In this document: positions 1,609-43,715 of the stretch, one piece after another
Layout: each line of letters begins with the position of its first letter
Numbering within the stretch: the stretch's first letter is position 1
Assembly: GCA_021323705.1 (NCBI GenBank)
Contig: JAJPKL010000041.1
Coordinates: forward strand, 264-64,263
Source: Nitrososphaerota archaeon
Lineage (GTDB): Archaea > Thermoproteota > Nitrososphaeria > Nitrososphaerales > Nitrosopumilaceae
Reading direction: 5' to 3'
Length of the DNA: 64,000 nt
Translations under genes and position numbers: made by a program
The notes under the pieces: model-generated
Seen by the model: only the letters and a program-made list of their open reading frames with translations
The model's database searches: none
What the model was told of the DNA's origin: nothing

Positions 1609-2925
1609 TTTTTCTTCTCTTACCTCAGGCTCGGCATATCTCTGCTGCGGCAGCATGATGTACACACATGCTCCTCCGCACATTGTACAGGGTACGGTAT
1701 TTCCCTTGAGCTGGCCAGTCCTTGCATGTATTTTTGCAGCCTCTTCTGGGTCAATTGACAGTGCAATCTGTTTTTCCCAGTTGAGTGTTCGTCTTGCCTC
1801 TGTCATCTCCATGTCCCACTTGATTGCCTTGTCGCGCAGCTTGACCAGGTCTGCAGCATGCGCTGCAATCCTGTATGCAATCAGCCCCGCCTTTACCTCC
1901 TCGGCGTTTGGCAGTGCAAGATGTTCTGCAGGAGTAAGATAGCAGAGCAGGTCTACCCCTTCGCTTGCAGACACTGCAGCTCCAATTGCACTGGCAATAT
2001 GATCATGGCCTGAGGCTACGTCAGTTACAAGCGGCCCAAGTACGTAATAAGGCACGTCGCCTATCAAAGATTTTGCCAGCCTAACGTTTGCAGCAACCTC
2101 GTTTAGCGGTACATGGCCAGGACCTTCCACCATGACCTGGATGTCTTTTTCGTGTGCTCTTTTTGTGAGCCTCGAGATGTTTATCATTTCCTGCACCTGC
2201 AGCTCATCATGAGAGTCAAGTATGGAGCCCGGTCGCAGTGCATCACCTAAGCTGAATGTGACATCATATTTTCTTGCAAGCTCTATCAAATAGTCAAAGT
2301 GTTCATAGTACGGGTTTTCCTTGTCATACTTTAGCATCCATGCGGCAGTGATGGTTCCTCCCTTGCTTACTATACCGCCGTGCCTTTTTACTGCCAAGAT
2401 TCTTTTGGCAATCTCTTTTGTTATGCCAGAATGTATTGTAGTGTAATCAACTCCATCTTTTATGTTGCTCTCAAATGCATTTAGATAGTCGTCCTCTGTG
2501 ATGTCAAGGGGGTTCTTGTGCTTTTCAACTCCATAGTTGTATGCCTCGTAGACTGGAACGGTACCAAATGTTATTGGTGCTGCCTCAAGCAGAGTCCTTC
2601 TGAAAAGTCCCACGTCTCCTCCGTCGCTTAGGTCCATTATAGTATCAGAATGATGTTTTACGGCCACCTTGGCCTTTTTTACTTCCTCCTCAAGATTTTG
2701 GTGTAGTGTGGAATTGCCAATGTTGACGTTGACCTTTGTCTTCATCCCCTTGCCGATTCCAACCACGTGAATCTTTTGCGGTCTTGCATTGTTATGAGGA
2801 ATTATGATGGAACCGCTTGCTATCTTTGGAAGGAGCCACTCAAGAGTTACATTCTCGTCTTTTGCCACGGTCTTCATCTCTTCTGTGGCCATGCCCCTTC
2901 TGGCAGCGCTCATTTGTGTTCCCAA
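1591..2925 (-). CDS. thiC: Phosphomethylpyrimidine synthase
   Basis: KVNVNIGNS, FSLGDALRPG, MVEGPGHVP, CYLTPAEHL, C-terminal CTMCGGAC cluster motif. Confidence 0.97.
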   Translation of the reverse strand: MGTQMSAARRGMATEEMKTVAKDENVTLEWLLPKIASGSIIIPHNNARPQKIHVVGIGKGMKTKVNVNIGNSTLHQNLEEEVKKAKVAVKHHSDTIMDLSDGGDVGLFRRTLLEAAPITFGTVPVYEAYNYGVEKHKNPLDITEDDYLNAFESNIKDGVDYTTIHSGITKEIAKRILAVKRHGGIVSKGGTITAAWMLKYDKENPYYEHFDYLIELARKYDVTFSLGDALRPGSILDSHDELQVQEMINISRLTKRAHEKDIQVMVEGPGHVPLNEVAANVRLAKSLIGDVPYYVLGPLVTDVASGHDHIASAIGAAVSASEGVDLLCYLTPAEHLALPNAEEVKAGLIAYRIAAHAADLVKLRDKAIKWDMEMTEARRTLNWEKQIALSIDPEEAAKIHARTGQLKGNTVPCTMCGGACVYIMLPQQRYAEPEVREEKLQQAG

Positions 2926-2979
2926 TTTACTCTTTTTACCAATCGATTGAATTTAAACGTGAGTTTCTTGTGATGCTAT

Positions 2980-4284
2980 TTGTTGAATGTATTAACCATA
3001 GCAGGTTCTGATCCGTCTTCTGGCGCAGGCATTCAGGGAGATATAAAGACGTTCACGTCTCTTGGCGTGTACGGGTTTGCTGTTGTCACCGCACTGACAA
3101 GCCAAAACTCTTCCAAGTTCTTCAAGTCAGAGCCTGCATCACCTGACATCATAAAAAGTCAGATAAGATCAGTCATTTCAGATTTCAAGATAGACGCAAT
3201 CAAGATAGGAATGGTCTACGACAAAAAAACCATTAAAACAATTTACAACGAATTGAAAAATGTCAAGGTACCAACTGTTCTTGACCCAGTCTTCAGATCA
3301 ACGACTGGCGGCGTTTTGTTGCATCCTGACGCAATTTCTGATTTCATAAAGTTCTTGATTCCCATTTCACATATCATCACGCCAAACATACCAGAGGCAG
3401 AAAAGATTGCAGGCATGAAAATAAAGTCTATGAATGATGCAAAAAAAGCTGCCCTCAAAATAAATTCCCTAGGAGCAAAAAATGTCGTAATCAAAGGAGG
3501 TCACATGAGAGGCAAGAAGGTTGTCGACCTTCTACTTGAAAACAAGAGATTCCATCTCTTTTCCCAAAAAAGACTTCCAAGGGAGAGTCATGGCGGAGGA
3601 TGTATATTTTCTGCCGCCCTTTGTTCAAGTTTGGCCAAAGGGGAGAGCCTGCCAGAGTCAGTCAGGCATGCGCAAGAGATCTCACTTGAGTCTATCAGAG
3701 GAGCTGCAAGGGTAGGCAGGGGGTTTTCCATTGTAAGACAGAAAAGTGTAGACATGATAGAAAAAAAACTTTCAGATGCAATGCAGAAATTTATCGAGAT
3801 TGACGGAATTTACAACTACATACCAGAAGTGCAGACAAACTTTGTCTACTCCAAGCCCAACCCCAAAGTCATCTCGGACATACTTGGACTTGAGGGCCGC
3901 TTGATCAAAGTGGGAAGTTCGGTTCAGCCAGTAGGAACGCTCAAGTATGGTGGCTCAAGACATGTAGGAAACGCGGTCTTGGAAGTTGCAAAAAAATTTC
4001 CTTCGGTCAGGTCTGGCCTGAACATCAAGTATGATACAAAAACAATCAAGAAAGCAATTGCAAAGAGATTTTGCGTCACATACTACGACAGGACATCAGA
4101 GCCAGTCATTTCCAAGCATAAGGAAGGAAAGACGATATCGTGGGGAATCAAGTCTGCCCTCTCAAAGATGAAGGTGCCTCCTGATGTGATATACCACACA
4201 GGTGATCTTGGAAAAGAGCCGATGATCCTGATATTTGGCAAGTCTCCAAAAGATGTCCTGACAAAGCTTGGCAAGATTACGTAG
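2980..4284 (+). CDS. thiDN: Bifunctional HMP/HMP-P kinase with C-terminal ThiN (thiamine-phosphate synthase) domain
   Basis: IAGSDPSSGAGIQGD, ITPNIPEAE, HGGGC motifs, then ThiN-type IPEVQTNFVY...GGSRHV...GKEPMI. Confidence 0.93.
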   Translation: MLNVLTIAGSDPSSGAGIQGDIKTFTSLGVYGFAVVTALTSQNSSKFFKSEPASPDIIKSQIRSVISDFKIDAIKIGMVYDKKTIKTIYNELKNVKVPTVLDPVFRSTTGGVLLHPDAISDFIKFLIPISHIITPNIPEAEKIAGMKIKSMNDAKKAALKINSLGAKNVVIKGGHMRGKKVVDLLLENKRFHLFSQKRLPRESHGGGCIFSAALCSSLAKGESLPESVRHAQEISLESIRGAARVGRGFSIVRQKSVDMIEKKLSDAMQKFIEIDGIYNYIPEVQTNFVYSKPNPKVISDILGLEGRLIKVGSSVQPVGTLKYGGSRHVGNAVLEVAKKFPSVRSGLNIKYDTKTIKKAIAKRFCVTYYDRTSEPVISKHKEGKTISWGIKSALSKMKVPPDVIYHTGDLGKEPMILIFGKSPKDVLTKLGKIT

Positions 4285-4332: not shown

Positions 4333-5034
4333 ATGAAGGCTGTAATTTTGGCCGGAGGTCTTGGAACAAGACTTCAACCCTACACCACATTTCTTCCAAA
4401 GGCAATGCTTCCACTCGGCGACAAGCCACTGCTAGAACACTTGATTGAATGGGTAAAGGGCAACGGCGTTGATTCATTTGTGCTGTGTGTCAGTTATCTG
4501 AGAAAAACAATACAAGATTATTTCGAGGACGGGAGCAGGTTTGGTGTAAAGATAGAGTATGCCGTTGCAGACAGGCCGCTTGCAACTGCAGGCCAGCTAA
4601 AGACAGCGCAAGAGTTTCTTGATGACACATTTGTCTGCGTGTATGGAGATTCAATTTTTGAGTTTAGCTTGAAAAACATGATTAATTATCACAAAAAGAA
4701 AAAGGCCTTTGTCACGATGGGTCTGTACGAGTACAAGACAAAGCTTCCCTATGGTTTCATAGAGATGGACAAGACAAACCGTGTCAAGTCATGGCAGGAA
4801 AAGCCAGACGTCAAAGGAAACATCAACATCGGGTGCTATGTGATGGAGCCCGGAATTCTCAACCTTATCCCGGAAGGCAAGCCCTACGGAATGGATCAGG
4901 TCATTCGCACTGCTCTTGCCAAGAAGCACAGGGTTACAGGATATCCAATAAAGAAAGGCTTTCTTGACATAGGTGACAAGGCATCCTACCGACGCGCCTA
5001 CCAGCACTATTTGGAAAGGCTTGGCCAGATCTGA
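4333..5034 (+). CDS. Sugar-phosphate nucleotidyltransferase (single NTP_transferase domain)
   Basis: AVILAGGLGTRLQP, PKAMLP, YGD motifs; no LbH tail. Confidence 0.9.
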   Translation: MKAVILAGGLGTRLQPYTTFLPKAMLPLGDKPLLEHLIEWVKGNGVDSFVLCVSYLRKTIQDYFEDGSRFGVKIEYAVADRPLATAGQLKTAQEFLDDTFVCVYGDSIFEFSLKNMINYHKKKKAFVTMGLYEYKTKLPYGFIEMDKTNRVKSWQEKPDVKGNINIGCYVMEPGILNLIPEGKPYGMDQVIRTALAKKHRVTGYPIKKGFLDIGDKASYRRAYQHYLERLGQI

Positions 5035-5043
5035 GTCGCAACC

Positions 5044-5490
5044 ATGGCAGAAATCAAGATACGAAAACTCCAGAAAAAAGACGTGGCCAACGGCTATCTG
5101 CATACGCTTGACTCGCTTAGAAAGGCAAGCGACCTGAGCCAAAGAAAGGCCCAGTCAATTTTTGACAAGATTTCTTCAAACCCAAACGAGGCAATCTATG
5201 TTGCAGTGATGGATTCCAAGGTGGTTGGAGCCGCAAGCATAATCATCGAGCAGAAATTCATTCACGGTGGAGGCAAGGCAGGACACATCGAGGATGTTGC
5301 AGTAGCAAAGGAATTTCAGGGAAAAGGAATAGGCCAGAAGGTTGTCCGCGCCCTGCTTGAACACGCCCAAAAACAAGGATGCTACAAGACAATTCTTGAC
5401 TGCTCAGATGATCTGATTCCTTTCTATGAGAAGCTCGGGTTTAAGAAATATTCAAACGCAATGAGATTTGATCACCGGTCAAAGACGTAA
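5044..5490 (+). CDS. GNAT acetyltransferase, glucosamine-6-phosphate N-acetyltransferase (GNA1)-like
   Basis: EQKFIHGGGKAGHIEDVAV, QGKGIG, GCYKTILDC, FYEKLGF. Confidence 0.85.
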   Translation: MAEIKIRKLQKKDVANGYLHTLDSLRKASDLSQRKAQSIFDKISSNPNEAIYVAVMDSKVVGAASIIIEQKFIHGGGKAGHIEDVAVAKEFQGKGIGQKVVRALLEHAQKQGCYKTILDCSDDLIPFYEKLGFKKYSNAMRFDHRSKT

Positions 5491-29945: not shown

Positions 29946-30215
29946 TTGCAGGAGGTAGGCGAAGTATTGCATCTAGCTAGTAGCGGTAGGGTAGTGATCA
30001 GACTTTCCAAACCGTTACGCGATGGTCAAATAATTGTAGACAGTTCGGGAACCAAAGTCGCCAAAGTTTCAGAAATGATAAGTCCTGTTGATGCACCATA
30101 TGCATCCGCAATTCCGCTTACCAATAATATCAAAAGGCACATCGGACAGCACGTGTACATCGTCGACGAATCTCCTGTAATGAAACCAAAAAGATTCAGA
30201 GGAAAAAGAAGATGA
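29946..30215 (+). CDS. gar1: H/ACA RNP component Gar1/Naf1
   Basis: VAKVSEMISPVDAPYAS motif; S8e-SRP19-Gar1-TFB context. Confidence 0.8.
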   Translation: MQEVGEVLHLASSGRVVIRLSKPLRDGQIIVDSSGTKVAKVSEMISPVDAPYASAIPLTNNIKRHIGQHVYIVDESPVMKPKRFRGKRR

Positions 30216-31171
30216 ACATAACAGAACTACAGACACACTGTCCAGAATGTCGTTCAACTTTGATTGATGACATTCACAGTGGAGAAAAAATTTGTTCTGG
30301 CTGCGGACTGGTCGCAATGGAGCAGATGTCAGACTATGGCCCAGAATCAAGAGCAACAAACCCAGAAGAAAAAATGAAATCTGCAAGAGCAACAGGTCAA
30401 ACGACTTACTCACAGCACGACCTTGGAATCAGAACTGAAATTGCAATAGGAAGTAAGGACTTTAGTGGAAAAACAATTTCAAGCGACATGGCACTTCAGA
30501 TGTACAATCTGAGAAAATGGCAAACAAGAATCAGGGTTGCATCGCCAAGGGAGCGCCGACTTGCAAACATCCTGTCAAAGATAGGAGAGACATGCCAGTC
30601 GCTGGCATTGCCAAGAAACGTAATCGAGACGGCTTCAATGATATACAGAAACTTTGAAGGTCAAGCAGAGGCAAAAGGCAAATCTGTTGCCTGCATGTCT
30701 GCTGCAACAATATACATGGCGTGCAAGCAATGCGATGTTGTAAGATCACTTGATGAGATTTGCTCTGCAACTGGGAGCACAAAAGACGAGAGAATGAATG
30801 TAAAACTCACTGCGAAATATTACAGAATGCTCGTCATGGAGCTTGGGTCAAAGACAGCACCAGTAGTAACCCTTGAGAAATACATCTCAAAGATAGCAAA
30901 TCTGGCAAAGCTTGAGGTTCGCGTAGAAAGGCTTGCCGCCGAGATTGCAGAAAAGACAGACGATCACAACCTGGCAGATGGAAAGGCTCCAAATGGCCTT
31001 GCTGCTGCCTACCTATACATCGCGTCAACACTTCTTGGGCAGAGTATTTTGCAAAGAGATGTCTCAAGCGTGGCAGGAATCACGGAAGTTACTATACGAA
31101 ACAGGTGCAAGGAAATTCTGACAGCCTATAAGATCAAGGTCATCCTAAAACCAGCGTTAGCCAAAAACTAA
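30212..31171 (+). CDS. tfb: Transcription initiation factor IIB
   Basis: CPEC...CSGCG Zn ribbon, two cyclin repeats, GITEVTIRNRCKE. Confidence 0.95.
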   Translation: MNITELQTHCPECRSTLIDDIHSGEKICSGCGLVAMEQMSDYGPESRATNPEEKMKSARATGQTTYSQHDLGIRTEIAIGSKDFSGKTISSDMALQMYNLRKWQTRIRVASPRERRLANILSKIGETCQSLALPRNVIETASMIYRNFEGQAEAKGKSVACMSAATIYMACKQCDVVRSLDEICSATGSTKDERMNVKLTAKYYRMLVMELGSKTAPVVTLEKYISKIANLAKLEVRVERLAAEIAEKTDDHNLADGKAPNGLAAAYLYIASTLLGQSILQRDVSSVAGITEVTIRNRCKEILTAYKIKVILKPALAKN

Positions 31172-40656: not shown

Positions 40657-41274
40657 TTATTTATACCACTCTTGGGCTATTTTTTGCACTTGATTTATGT
40701 ATGATTTGAGAGCGGGGGCTTTTCCATCTCCGGCATTCATTCCTTCTGCAAGAACTCCGCGCACGTCTGAATATCCCATGAACTGAAATTCGGTCTTGCC
40801 AAGTGACAATGCATGTTCATACGATGCCATGGGCTCTTTCCCATAAAATCCTCCGCTTGAAACAAGCACCAATGCCTTTTTGTGTTTCATCAAACCAACA
40901 TATTTTCCATCTTTGACATCCCATGTCTTTCCCTTTAGCATTACAGAATCAAACCAGGCTTTTACAGGTGCAGGCATTGAGAAATTAAACATCGGATAAG
41001 CTACAACCACAATGTCTGCTGATGTCAGTTGTTCAGTCATGCGGTCCATCTTTTCAATAGATTTTTGTTGTCGTGATGTAAGGCCTTGTCCCAGATAGTT
41101 TCTTTGGATGTATGCTGCCAAGTTTTCTTCCAAGAAAAGGTCTGGCACGTCCATTGAAATATTCAGCTCTTCGATGTCAGAGTTTTTTATCTCCGATCTA
41201 AATGCGTCTACTAGTTTCTTTGTGTTTGATCTCTCATTTCTTGGCGTATAGTGAACAAGTAGTGTCTTCATCAA
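40657..41274 (-). CDS. azoR: FMN-dependent NADH:quinone oxidoreductase/azoreductase (AzoR/AcpD family)
   Basis: SNTKKL, VVAYPMFNFSMPAPVKAWFD, LVSSGGFY, FMGYSD. Confidence 0.9.
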   Translation of the reverse strand: MMKTLLVHYTPRNERSNTKKLVDAFRSEIKNSDIEELNISMDVPDLFLEENLAAYIQRNYLGQGLTSRQQKSIEKMDRMTEQLTSADIVVVAYPMFNFSMPAPVKAWFDSVMLKGKTWDVKDGKYVGLMKHKKALVLVSSGGFYGKEPMASYEHALSLGKTEFQFMGYSDVRGVLAEGMNAGDGKAPALKSYINQVQKIAQEWYK

Positions 41275-41276
41275 AT

Positions 41277-42221
41277 CTACATTCCCAGTTGCTTTCTCAA
41301 TATTCTGGCAACGTTTCTAATCGTTACGCTACTAACACCTGATGCCTTGGCTATGTCTTTCTGGGTGGCTTTTTCCTCGTTTATTATGCCAGACATGAAT
41401 ACAGCAGTTGCTGCAAGTGAGACAGGATTTTTCCCATCTGTTAATCCCCTCCCGTGTGCCTTACTGAGTATGTCTAGCGCGTCTCTTTTTGCTTTTTCAC
41501 TGAAACCTACCATCGTTCCTATCTTTGATACAAATTCCAAGGGATTAAACGACTCTACCTGCAATTCCAACGATTTGACAAGCACTCTATAGTGTCTTGA
41601 GAGATCCTTAAAGGAGACGTTTCCAGCCTCTGCAATTTCTTGGAGTGTCCTAGGCACATTAGATTCTCTGCAGGCCACATAAAGTGCCGAAAGAATCATT
41701 CCAGATATGGTCCTTCCTCTAATGATGTTCTTGGTTAACGCCTTTCTGTACAGATATGCAGCTCTTTCTATGACAGCATCTGATATCTCCAATTTTGACT
41801 GGGCGCTTTCCATGATTACAAATGCCGACCTAAGATTTCGTTCCGAGGAGTTTGCCTTACTCCTGCTATCCCATGTTCGCAGTCTGCTGAAGGTATACTT
41901 CATGTATGACGATATTGAGTTTCCAGAGGCATCCCTGTCTGCATTCCCAATCACTGTAGAGAGTCCCTTGTCGTGTATTGATAAAGTTGAAGCAAGTCCT
42001 GTTCTAGAATTTTGCGCATAATCTTCCATTGTAAAAGATCTCTGTTCAGGACCCAAATCCTCGACTTTATCTGCAAGCACAGAGCCACAACTCGCGCATA
42101 GGATCTCCCCTCTAATACTGTCAGTTACTAGCGGGCCATGCGAGTTTCCACTGGCAGGACATTTCTCAGTCCTTGACTGGAATACAAACTCTTGTCTGGG
42201 GGTCTTATTACTAACTATCAT
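41277..42221 (-). CDS. tfb: Transcription initiation factor IIB paralog
   Basis: Zn ribbon C..H...CASCG, EDLGPE, two cyclin repeats, GVSSVTIRN. Confidence 0.93.
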   Translation of the reverse strand: MIVSNKTPRQEFVFQSRTEKCPASGNSHGPLVTDSIRGEILCASCGSVLADKVEDLGPEQRSFTMEDYAQNSRTGLASTLSIHDKGLSTVIGNADRDASGNSISSYMKYTFSRLRTWDSRSKANSSERNLRSAFVIMESAQSKLEISDAVIERAAYLYRKALTKNIIRGRTISGMILSALYVACRESNVPRTLQEIAEAGNVSFKDLSRHYRVLVKSLELQVESFNPLEFVSKIGTMVGFSEKAKRDALDILSKAHGRGLTDGKNPVSLAATAVFMSGIINEEKATQKDIAKASGVSSVTIRNVARILRKQLGM

Positions 42222-42224
42222 TTG

Positions 42225-42255
42225 TATAGTTACTATATACTTGAAAGTATTTAAA
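42225..42255 (-). promoter_or_regulatory. TATA (TTTAAATA, 42255-42248) + 13-bp palindromic operator (42237-42225) of tfb-azoR
   Basis: TATAGTWACTATA palindrome 10 nt downstream of TATA, 3 nt before the ATG; same layout at 42785-42815. Confidence 0.7.
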
Positions 42256-42334
42256 ATATCAAGTTAATCCATGTATATTAGATTAACTTTCGGTAAGTGG
42301 TTTGTAAGAATCACTTTAGAAGAAGCAGTGAAAG

Positions 42335-42742
42335 CTATTCGGATTTTTTTGGTTTTGAATAAATTTCTTTTAAAATTTTAGGTTTGCCATCCTTGAATAT
42401 GTCTTTTGCACAATACTGCATGGAATAAGCTGCCATAGCCTCAAGTACTGGTTTTAGCGCAAGCCCCTTTTTTGTCATGGAGTATTCTATCTTAACCGGC
42501 GTTCCAGGGTAAATTCTCTTCTCAATTAGACCATTTTTTTCCATCTCCCTCAACCGGGCAGACAACGTCTTTGGATTTATTCCCTCAATTGACTCCAAAA
42601 ACTCGTTGAATCTATGCTGTCCAAGTCTTGTCATGTTACGGATAATATGAATAGTAAATTTTTTACCAATAATTTTAAACGTGTTATCGATGGGGCATGT
42701 CTTTAGAGAGTCAAGAACAATTTTACATTCTTCGTCTGTCAA
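42335..42742 (-). CDS. HxlR/DUF24 (MarR-type) winged-helix regulator with N-terminal Cys
   Basis: CPIDNTFKIIGKKF, RFNE...GINPKTLSARLREMEKNGL...KIEYSMTKKG. Confidence 0.92.
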   Translation of the reverse strand: MTDEECKIVLDSLKTCPIDNTFKIIGKKFTIHIIRNMTRLGQHRFNEFLESIEGINPKTLSARLREMEKNGLIEKRIYPGTPVKIEYSMTKKGLALKPVLEAMAAYSMQYCAKDIFKDGKPKILKEIYSKPKKSE

Positions 42743-42784
42743 CTTACCATCCTCTCATCTAATTTCTTTATAGAAACTTTCCAA

Positions 42785-42815
42785 TTTAAATACTTACCTT
42801 TCTATAGTTACTATA
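42785..42815 (+). promoter_or_regulatory. TATA (TTTAAATA) + 13-bp palindromic operator TATAGTTACTATA (42803-42815)
   Basis: Identical 13-mer and 10-nt TATA spacing to the tfb promoter. Confidence 0.7.
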
Positions 42816-42825
42816 AGAAAGTAAT

Positions 42826-43161
42826 ATGAAATGCGAATCAGAAAGATGCGACATAGAACATGCAACCTGTTCGTGTAGTTCTGAGATGGAATGTGGCGGT
42901 TGCGGTTGTGAATCAGAAGATCCCATAAACCGCGTGATCAGCGAATGGCACCAGGCCTTCCATGACGCCGTACACGAGGCACAGGTTGAACGACTCAAAA
43001 AGAGAATTGAGGCAAACTTTGGACCCACCATGGACAAAATTGCAGATGCGATGGTTGAAACCGCAAGCAAGGTTTTCCAGTCCATGCTGGTACAATCAGA
43101 AAGCAAAAAAGAACTTGGAGCAAAGTTGCAAAAGATATTTTCTGAAACAGGTAGGAGATAA
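42826..43161 (+). CDS. Hypothetical protein with Cys-rich N-terminus and helical C-terminus
   Basis: 7 Cys in the first 28 aa (CSCSSEMECGGCGC), then amphipathic helices. Confidence 0.8.
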   Translation: MKCESERCDIEHATCSCSSEMECGGCGCESEDPINRVISEWHQAFHDAVHEAQVERLKKRIEANFGPTMDKIADAMVETASKVFQSMLVQSESKKELGAKLQKIFSETGRR

Positions 43162-43200: not shown

Positions 43201-43715
43201 TTATTTCTTGTCTGCAACCTTTTGTTTTCTAGATATCATTAGAGATAAAGTTGCATATAGACCAATGAATGCTATTTGAAAGTACTCTATTTGAGGGATG
43301 CTTGCAATACCCCGTGGTGGCGGCCCTCTTGGAAAGTGTGGTATATTTTCGCCACCTGTCCAAGTCCACTCTGAGACATATTTCCAGGTGTAATGTTTTC
43401 TGGTACATGCGCTGTGGGTATGCTTCCAAATAGACTGTGGGTATGAGTAGCAAACCACAGTGCAGTAAATACTACGGTTCCAACGATTCCAATAATTTGC
43501 CATATTCTACCCCATCGCTTTATGACAGGAACTGCCCAAAAAATTTGTAAAATGCCTCCAACTAGGAACAGTATTCCTTCATCTACCTCTCTTGATATTG
43601 ACATTGGAACCATCATCAAGTGCAATATTCCTGCAATTACGCTAGTTGCAGCAGCAACAATCGAGACTAGTAAAATTTTACGGTCTTTAACTAGAGTTTG
43701 ACTCATCTTCCACAA
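43201..43715 (-). pseudogene. Membrane protein gene split by an apparent single-base frameshift near 43355-43362
   Basis: ORF 43287..43715 (3 TM) shifts into frame of 43201..43503, which supplies PHFPRGPPPRG linker and a fourth TM helix. Confidence 0.6.

Follow-up and report, generated by a model that had tools for sequence, protein, structure and literature searches.

A putative thiol-switch HxlR-family repressor paired with a TFB paralog gene in a conserved locus of soil ammonia-oxidising archaea

Results and Discussion

Genes and features of the hxlR-tfb locus

The window analysed here (the whole stretch of 64,000 nucleotides, taken from Nitrosopumilaceae contig JAJPKL010000041.1) contains at positions 40657-43161 a compact cluster in which hxlR, a gene for an HxlR/DUF24-family regulator, stands upstream of tfb, a gene that encodes a paralog of TFB, an archaeal transcription factor. 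In the list of open reading frames (ORFs), the gene order on the minus strand was hxlR, tfb and an azoR-like gene, and one Cys-rich ORF ran divergently on the plus strand. Predicted regulatory elements were found on both sides of hxlR, and the features of the cluster are the following.

40657..41274, minus strand: AzoR-like FMN-dependent NAD(P)H quinone/azo reductase, 205 aa from the TTG at 41274; last gene of the predicted tfb operon here
41277..42221, minus strand: TFB paralog, 314 aa, with two cyclin-like repeats and an atypical Zn ribbon
42225..42237, no strand assigned: predicted operator O1, palindrome TATAGTAACTATA, its final base 3 nt before the tfb ATG
42243..42255, minus strand: tfb core promoter TTTAAATACTTTC, with the TATA box at 42248-42255; 9 nt upstream of O1
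42280..42298, minus strand: conserved upstream block ACTTACCGAAAGTTAATCT, consensus ACTTACC-N4-GTTAATCTG
42335..42742, minus strand: hxlR, HxlR/DUF24-family winged-helix regulator, 135 aa, with a conserved TTG start
42785..42797, plus strand: core promoter of the Cys-rich gene, TTTAAATACTTAC, with a TATA-to-operator spacing of 9 nt, as at tfb
42803..42815, no strand assigned: predicted operator O2, TATAGTAACTATA on the minus strand, 10 nt upstream of the Cys-rich ATG
42826..43161, plus strand: Cys-rich protein gene, 111 aa, divergent from hxlR

Measured from the regulator gene, O2 lies 61-73 nt upstream of the hxlR TTG. An earlier note, made from the sequence of this stretch, had stated that the TFB paralog gene stops 2 nt before a gene of the AzoR/AcpD type, and the ORFs and the sequence bore this out: two bases (41275-41276) separate the TAG with which tfb stops (41277-41279) from the TTG (41272-41274) of the azoR-like ORF, and the ATG (41269-41271) comes directly after the TTG, giving a gap of 2 nt to the TTG or 5 nt to the ATG. 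The Cys-rich ORF that it had listed is likewise real (42826-43161, plus strand), with homologues elsewhere. A second, canonical TFB is encoded in the window at 30212-31171 on the plus strand and is 31.5% identical to the TFB paralog. The closest named homologues of both the TFB paralog and HxlR came from Candidatus Nitrosotalea, an acid-soil genus of ammonia oxidisers that dominated both homologue lists. By these names the source organism is assigned to Nitrosotalea, and the sequencing runs that hold the window were soil and mine DNA metagenomes.

The HxlR regulator and its cysteines

The family assignment made in the earlier note agreed with the Pfam result, as residues 24-113 matched the HxlR family (PF01638) with 84.9 bits against a cut-off of 20.8 and an E value of 3.6e-24. 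The cysteines that it had pointed out, Cys6, Cys16 in a CPI motif and a C-terminal Cys, were all found in the protein sequence (MTDEEC6KIVLDSLKTC16PI...MQYC111AKD). When solved structures were searched, the best relative was B. subtilis YodB (5hs7, 2.9e-18) and the second-best was B. subtilis HxlR. In the alignment with YodB, Cys16-Pro17 fell on YodB Cys6-Pro and Cys111 fell on YodB Cys101 (in ...DQFCE). Cys16 is therefore placed near the N-terminus of helix alpha1, where the reactive cysteines of YodB (Cys6), CatR (Cys7) and HypR (Cys14) are found, and Cys111 occupies the disulfide position of YodB Cys101.

Conservation separated these cysteines. Among the close homologues, Cys16 and Pro17 were each present in 121 of 121 sequences, Cys111 in 113 and Cys6 in 108. 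C16, P17 and C111 were invariant in a broader set of 42 sequences, which took in Nitrososphaeraceae and had a lowest identity of 55%, whereas Cys6 was replaced by Pro in L002 and in L020-22 (loci are numbered L001 onwards). Thus two of the three flagged cysteines stood, at the positions of YodB Cys6 and Cys101, and Cys6 did not hold as a conserved residue. Judged from these alignments, HxlR is a regulator of the YodB-like two-Cys type (Cys16, Cys111).

Palindromes and core promoters flanking hxlR

The exact 13-mer TATAGTAACTATA occurs twice in the 64-kb window, at 42225-42237 and 42803-42815, and the two copies flank hxlR. The same two sites are also the only occurrences of TATA-N5-TATA in the window. 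This palindrome is new here and was absent from the earlier note. Each copy lies 9 nt downstream of a TATA box, TTTAAATAC. Read in the sense of tfb, the order is TTTAAATAC, 9 nt, the palindrome and CAA-ATG; read in the sense of the Cys-rich gene, the order is TTTAAATAC, 9 nt, the palindrome, 10 nt and ATG. The palindrome keeps a constant distance from the TATA box but not from the start codon, which indicates a transcriptional element. The TATA boxes are part of an extended core pattern, TTTAWATRCTTWC, which was matched in the window only at the tfb promoter and at 42785-42797. No further operator sites and no further TCACTT-TATA core sites were found within the 64 kb.

The centre of an archaeal TATA box lies approximately 26 bp upstream of the transcription start site. 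On this basis both palindromes would cover about -12 to +1, and the tfb mRNA is predicted to be leaderless. The TATA box at 42784-42792 is nearly palindromic and probably also serves hxlR in the opposite direction.

We constructed a footprint from 25 distinct loci anchored on the palindrome. On the tfb side, TATA-N5-TATA was invariant in all 25 and also in L050-53, that is, in about 29 Nitrosotalea loci. The segment cATTTTAAATACTT...GTgTATA-N5-TATACAA-ATG was almost invariant across the footprint; the DNA farther upstream of the tfb promoter showed no conservation, its flanks being randomised, and the operator was less variable than the first codons of tfb. The centre of the palindrome varied (GTAAC, GTTAC, GTAGA, TTAGA or CTAAC) while the outer (G)TATA and TATA(C) remained constant. 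On the hxlR side of the 25 aligned loci, O2 was an exact TATA-N5-TATA in 21, had one mismatch in 3 and was degraded in L044. It was followed in order by cAAAGGTAAG, a TATATAAAT box, GAAAGTGA, a Shine-Dalgarno-like element AAGTGAG and the conserved TTG start. When approximately 250 kb of related loci were searched for [GC]TATA-N5-TATA[GC], hardly any matches were found outside these two positions.

In comparisons of the window with the related loci, synonymous sites were saturated, with a proportion of synonymous differences (pS) of 0.73-0.93 and a synonymous distance (dS) of about 1.1 for the closest locus. The ratio of non-synonymous to synonymous change (dN/dS), determined against L001, was 0.045 for tfb and 0.033 for hxlR. 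Because synonymous sites were saturated and dN/dS was low, the conservation of the non-coding elements reflects selection, and both hxlR and tfb are functional genes.

Whether the palindrome is the site of HxlR has to be considered, since a different factor might bind it, or TBP and the TFB paralog might read it as an alternative TATA box or initiator, with hxlR a mere neighbour. The motif does consist of two TATA tetramers, and by our own estimate about 4 occurrences of TATA-N5-TATA would be expected in 64 kb, where 2 were seen. However, both copies are identical 13-mers placed on either side of hxlR, and a canonical TATA box is already present 9 nt upstream at the right distance from the start codon. 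Moreover, the site stays beside hxlR in L018 despite the loss of tfb from that locus, and the dyad of 15 bp with half-sites one helical turn apart has the operator format of YodB and HypR. We regard this alternative as highly improbable. The HypR box, GTATCAAAATTGATAC (PMC3351151), shares its GTAT...ATAC ends with this dyad and is of nearly equal length (16 vs 15 bp).

The position of the sites also bears on how HxlR would act. It has been reported that archaeal repressors usually bind downstream of the pre-initiation complex (PMC4287449), and at tfb and at the divergent gene the palindrome has the TATA box on one side and the start codon on the other, as expected of a repressor. A different reading is that HxlR is not a repressor inactivated through thiols or quinones but an activator, or a sensor of, for example, aldehyde, hypochlorite or metal, with the palindromes used for activation or autoregulation. 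The family does contain activators, the HypR box being located upstream of hypO (PMC3351151), and B. subtilis HxlR ranks second among the solved relatives. O2 lies upstream of the TATA box of hxlR itself, a position like that of an activator site, and the nearest NCBIfam models, RrpA and RrpB, describe peroxide-stress regulators, with neither match reaching its cut-off. Besides the repressor geometry at the other two genes, the cysteines speak against this reading, as both YodB switch residues are present and invariant. Formaldehyde sensing by B. subtilis HxlR depends on a Cys-x-Lys motif in helix alpha1 (Cys11/Lys13). These positions aligned to Cys16-Pro17-Ile18, with no Lys at +2, so that the formaldehyde-type motif is replaced by Cys-Pro-Ile. 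An activator or a sensor of this different kind therefore seems improbable to us.

A YodB-type site, TACT-N7-AGTA, was also sought and none was found. The sequence TACTTTCAAGTA beside the tfb TATA box in this genome was discounted as such a site, being not conserved across the footprint loci.

A separate block, ACTTACC-N4-GTTAATCTG, is located 23-42 nt upstream of the tfb TATA box and had high information content in the 25-locus footprint. It is unique in the window and was kept in nearly all loci, including L018 with its deleted tfb. This block may be an upstream regulatory or activator site.

Conservation of the hxlR-tfb pair

Related loci were collected from three sources: a genome scan with TFB, which gave 2 loci from metagenome-assembled genomes (MAGs) of Nitrosopumilaceae; a metagenome scan with the HxlR alignment, which gave 38 loci; and look-ups of named homologues, which added MAG contigs linked to Ca. 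Nitrosotalea okcheonensis through an identical TFB protein, an assembly of N. sinensis and further MAGs. Locus L041 carries the TFB that is identical to one named for Ca. N. okcheonensis and has the gene order hxlR-tfb-pirin-MFS, and L043 is the locus from the N. sinensis assembly. Of 31 loci with an HxlR at least 70% identical, 30 had tfb downstream of hxlR at a distance of approximately 100-120 nt. The adjacency is thus no peculiarity of this genome, which was the outcome that the earlier note had named as counting against its proposal. It had also suggested looking for the order DUF24-TFB-AzoR across archaea. The first two members of that order were recovered widely in Nitrosotalea-type loci and, inverted, in Nitrososphaeraceae, but azoR was confined to three loci and a remnant. 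The conserved unit is hxlR-tfb, not tfb-azoR.

More distant HxlR proteins (55-65% identity) fell into several groups. On the low-GC Nitrososphaeraceae contigs L032-34 and L046-49, an N-terminally extended HxlR is encoded divergently from a TFB. This hxlR-linked TFB is 45% identical to the TFB paralog of the window and 33% identical to the other TFB of the window, and its Zn ribbon is of the canonical Cys4 form. Two TATAGTTAC elements abut its ATG, and on the hxlR side an operator-like element is followed by AAGGTAAC and a TATA box. This arrangement suggests that the hxlR-TFB pairing may predate the split of the two families of ammonia-oxidising archaea (AOA). All seven of these contigs end inside the hxlR-linked TFB gene, which suggests that assemblies break at that TFB, perhaps on sequence shared among TFB paralogs.

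The locus without tfb, L018, has a neighbourhood of its own. At L018:1010-3916 the Cys-rich gene and hxlR adjoin genes for an EgtB-like protein (DinB_2 + FGE-sulfatase), an EgtD-like histidine methyltransferase and a UBP-type zinc-finger protein. The EgtB-like and EgtD-like genes are ergothioneine-synthesis genes.

The TFB paralog

The TFB paralog is a full-length protein. Its two TFIIB repeats (PF00382) were detected by Pfam as two stretches with 104.5 bits against a cut-off of 23.6 (3.1e-30). The Zn_Ribbon_TF match stayed just below its cut-off (28.4 bits against 29), and the NCBIfam TFB subfamily model gave 297.2 bits, short of its cut-off of 384. From these scores, the protein is best described as a divergent member of the TFB subfamily. 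The ribbon itself reads C21-x6-H28...C42-x2-C45 and lacks the Cys4 arrangement (CxxC...CxxC); the other TFB of the window has CPEC...CSGC.

The search listed 120 TFB orthologues with 65-100% identity, which belonged to Nitrosotalea wherever they were named. Among these, H28, C42 and C45 were present in 119-120 of 120, while the first ribbon Cys was present in 98 and replaced in 22. The motifs GPEQR and HDKGLST, which may represent the B-reader and B-linker, were conserved among the 120 orthologues listed.

Genes downstream of tfb

The azoR-like protein matched Flavodoxin_2 (PF02525) over its full length with 123.4 bits against a cut-off of 27 (1.3e-35) and FMN_red with 6e-11 in Pfam. All of its top 20 solved relatives were FMN-dependent NADH-azoreductases, the best at 7e-20. 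The best NCBIfam AzoR model reached 89.9 bits against a cut-off of 188, which places the protein outside that subfamily or equivalog. On these matches the flavoprotein is best labelled AzoR-like.

The gene that follows tfb differs among loci. Three loci have azoR in this place (L002, L006 and that of the window), and L001 retains a remnant of 55 codons. In 12 loci tfb is followed by a gene for a 242-aa pirin, with an overlap of 4 nt or 1 nt. Small uncharacterised proteins follow in L005, L043, L044 and L050, whereas in L052/53 tfb is the sole downstream gene and a convergent gene comes next. Across the loci, the partners of the module comprised AzoR, pirin, FMN reductase, glyoxalase, MFS and thioredoxin. 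The distance from tfb to azoR was +2/+5, +7 or -4 nt and that from tfb to pirin was -4 or -1 nt; wherever a gene follows tfb, the junction falls between -4 and +7 nt. A promoter for azoR or pirin within the 3' end of tfb was considered and rejected, as no conserved TATA-like element was found there. The tight tfb-azoR gaps and the lack of a conserved internal TATA box argue for co-transcription.

L001 is the closest relative of the window, a MAG with 90% TFB identity, and shows decay around the module at 2680-3400 and 4954-5118. In this locus azoR is reduced to 55 codons, an internal segment of the Cys-rich gene is inverted and the gene for the adjoining membrane protein carries a frameshift. 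No such damage affects hxlR, tfb or the two operators, and the decay may be a misassembly.

These neighbours bear on a simpler explanation, in which the locus is an ordinary detoxification operon under HxlR control and the TFB is either redundant or a local feed-forward booster of its own promoter (TCACTT-N5-TTTAAATACTTWC), with no second-tier regulon. The neighbouring genes encode classic electrophile-response enzymes, and the unusual core promoter, present in 64 kb only at the two promoters of the module, would fit a local role. The TFBs of AOA number 4-11, with no specificity shown for them (PMC7554672). On the other hand, the enzyme differs between loci or is missing, whereas tfb is the partner that stays constant, being even the only downstream gene in L052/53; tfb is under strong purifying selection (dN/dS 0.045); and the pairing has survived an inversion between two AOA families. 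We consider the simple detoxification operon unlikely.

The divergent gene

In the Cys-rich protein of 111 aa, a disordered, variable, metallothionein-like N-terminus with 9 Cys precedes a C-terminal domain of about 70 aa that is helical and conserved. The protein had no match in Pfam or NCBIfam. A low-confidence model built from the single sequence had a predicted local distance difference test score (pLDDT) of 63.7 and helices at 33-65, 67-91 and 94-108. The C-terminal domain carries the motif W..AF..A..E....LK..I...WGP.MDK.ADAV.E, and the family comprised 92 clusters at 50% identity among 1.84 billion representatives. Homologues occupy the same position in L003, L004, L018 and L023.

At least four alternative genes are found at the divergent position: the Cys-rich protein, a 28-aa CxxC ORF, a DUF2798 membrane protein and a WCGPC thioredoxin. 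The 28-aa ORF, MTTQTQHKHQWTVRSNHWQCNTCGKTYG, is His-rich with a CxxC motif and was present in 8 loci (L005:227-313, L007:3832-3918, L008, L010-L012, L014 and L016); it matched no Pfam family. It stands under the same operator, and gene callers are likely to miss it. The DUF2798 membrane protein is divergent from hxlR in L020-22 and the WCGPC thioredoxin in L052 (3047-3520) and L053 (3047-3484). The called start of the L052/53 thioredoxin would put the operator inside the ORF.

A possible thiol-controlled TFB switch

With moderate confidence, and reading from sequence features, we propose that a thiol-based HxlR-family repressor of the YodB/QsrR type gates a dedicated TFB paralog, and that the two form a conserved module of soil AOA. 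The parts of this proposal differ in strength. HxlR likely binds the dyads, and derepression through its thiols is probable; that the TFB paralog serves a distinct regulon is close to an even question, tilting slightly towards no.

In the proposed mechanism, the reduced HxlR dimer would bind the palindromes and block the recruitment of RNA polymerase after TBP and TFB have bound. Quinones or electrophiles would alkylate Cys16, or oxidants would form a Cys16-Cys111' disulfide, and HxlR would leave the DNA. Three outputs would be released: the TFB paralog, which is the only constant target; a co-transcribed detoxifying enzyme, here the AzoR-like quinone reductase and in sister lineages pirin; and a divergent thiol-related product, here the Cys-rich protein and elsewhere thioredoxin, the 28-aa CxxC peptide or the DUF2798 membrane protein. 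The TFB paralog would then redirect or sustain initiation at a second tier of promoters, in the manner of YodB-spx or of an alternative sigma factor.

Several points weigh against this proposal. The operators are assigned to HxlR only by adjacency, co-conservation and family resemblance, and some members of the family are activators (HypR, B. subtilis HxlR) or aldehyde sensors. The structure model of HxlR built from 42 sequences had a low confidence (pLDDT 60.9). The TFB paralog could be redundant with other TFBs. The TFB is dispensable in some lineages, since tfb is missing from L018 by deletion and has a mutated start in L019. The azoR gene, on which the quinone link of the earlier note was founded, is present in a minority of loci. 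In Nitrososphaeraceae the operator is less clearly palindromic, and the TFB there is a related TFB for which orthology is putative and not proven. Finally, searches for sequencing runs that hold the locus returned DNA metagenomes or nothing, with no RNA run among them.

A wider version of the proposal would make hxlR-tfb an ancient archaeal counterpart of a stress sigma-factor switch across soil AOA, which would reprogramme initiation genome-wide under quinone or oxidant stress. We find this rather doubtful. Within it, the TFB paralog would possibly have a promoter preference of its own, the TCACTT-N5-TTTAWAT(A/G)CTTWC core found at the module promoters. A sharper variant is that the Cys-poor ribbon (C-x6-H...CxxC), whose first Cys is often replaced, could make the TFB paralog a thiol-stress-proof spare, which would sustain transcription while the housekeeping TFBs suffer electrophile damage to their Cys4 ribbons.

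Comparison with known systems

The closest parallel is YodB, with its regulon of azoR1, yodC and spx. YodB responds to quinones through S-alkylation of Cys6 and to diamide through Cys6-Cys101' disulfides, and represses azoR1 at a 15-bp palindrome, TACT-N7-AGTA (PMC8063818). In Bacillus, YodB and PerR repress spx, whose product Spx is an RNA-polymerase-binding global regulator of thiol stress (PMC3479203). The locus described here shares with YodB the Pfam family, the positions of the sensing Cys and of its disulfide partner, the format of a predicted 15-bp palindromic operator, a putative azoreductase target and, as proposed, the two-tier logic. It differs in that the setting is archaeal, with TATA/TFB promoters, and in that the second tier would be a basal-factor paralog encoded beside the sensor and not Spx. 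The operator also differs, (G)TATA-N5-TATA(C) vs TACT-N7-AGTA, and the enzyme partner is AzoR, pirin or none.

S. aureus QsrR is a homologue with a solved DNA complex (4hqe, 1e-11) and likewise has an N-terminal sensing Cys. In contrast to HxlR, QsrR is a bacterial one-Cys sensor that works by S-quinonisation, and we know of no transcription-factor target for it. Its operator is probably GTATA-N5-TATAC, which would agree with the consensus of the palindromes described here, and this resemblance is taken as a lead, not as evidence.

In Archaea, RosR of Halobacterium salinarum directly regulates tfbB, and about a quarter of its indirect regulon has been attributed to TfbB (PMC4287449). RosR is an oxidative-stress regulator, and its control of a TFB paralog gene has the two-tier form proposed here. 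However, that work described RosR as a regulator of haloarchaea that has many targets and a palindrome of 20 bp, and it is not an HxlR-family neighbour of the TFB gene; tfbB is one of 21 transcription-factor targets and not the core of a compact module, and the phylum and the sensing chemistry are different. Other TFB paralogs linked to stress include TFB3 of Sulfolobus (UV/DNA damage) and the haloarchaeal TfbA-G (PMC6101594, PMC3261711). They resemble the TFB paralog of the window in being induced by, or dedicated to, particular stresses or programmes. In contrast, their upstream sensor is not a neighbouring thiol-switch repressor, and TFB3 is a truncated co-activator whereas the TFB paralog of the window is full length. 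No comparable case is known from ammonia oxidisers.

The earlier note had known of no such system in archaea. Literature searches that combined HxlR with TFB or with AOA returned, for ammonia oxidisers, no description of a TFB in conserved physical linkage with an HxlR thiol sensor and a defined operator, and to that extent the statement stood, whereas for the two-tier logic RosR-tfbB is a precedent (PMC4287449).

AOA encode 4-11 TFBs and several TBPs, and the functions of the paralogs are unknown (PMC7554672). The locus described here pairs one TFB clade with a sensor of understood chemistry and with an operator that can be synthesised, and for these reasons the purpose of a TFB paralog can be put to a direct test in cultured Nitrosotalea. 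The same plausibly holds for Nitrososphaeraceae, although their hxlR-TFB loci led back to no cultured strain. It also offers a clue to why Nitrosotalea keep many TFB copies. If the proposal is true, the locus would show in archaea, in compact and genomically hard-wired form, a general transcription factor under the control of a specific regulator. Humic quinones and phenolics generally abound in acid soils, and AOA show a marked sensitivity to oxidants. A transcription programme dedicated to quinone or thiol stress, if it exists, would help to explain niche adaptation.

Neighbouring genes

Thaumarchaeal integrative and conjugative elements carry TFIIB genes (PMC6563490). A mobile-element origin of the module was rejected because the flanking genes are conserved chromosomal genes, such as that for acyl-CoA dehydrogenase. 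Between the module and the acyl-CoA dehydrogenase gene lies a gene for a membrane protein of 142 aa (43287-43715, minus strand), with a weak match to DUF7475 below the cut-off. This gene has no evident link to the module and was kept in L004 and L006.

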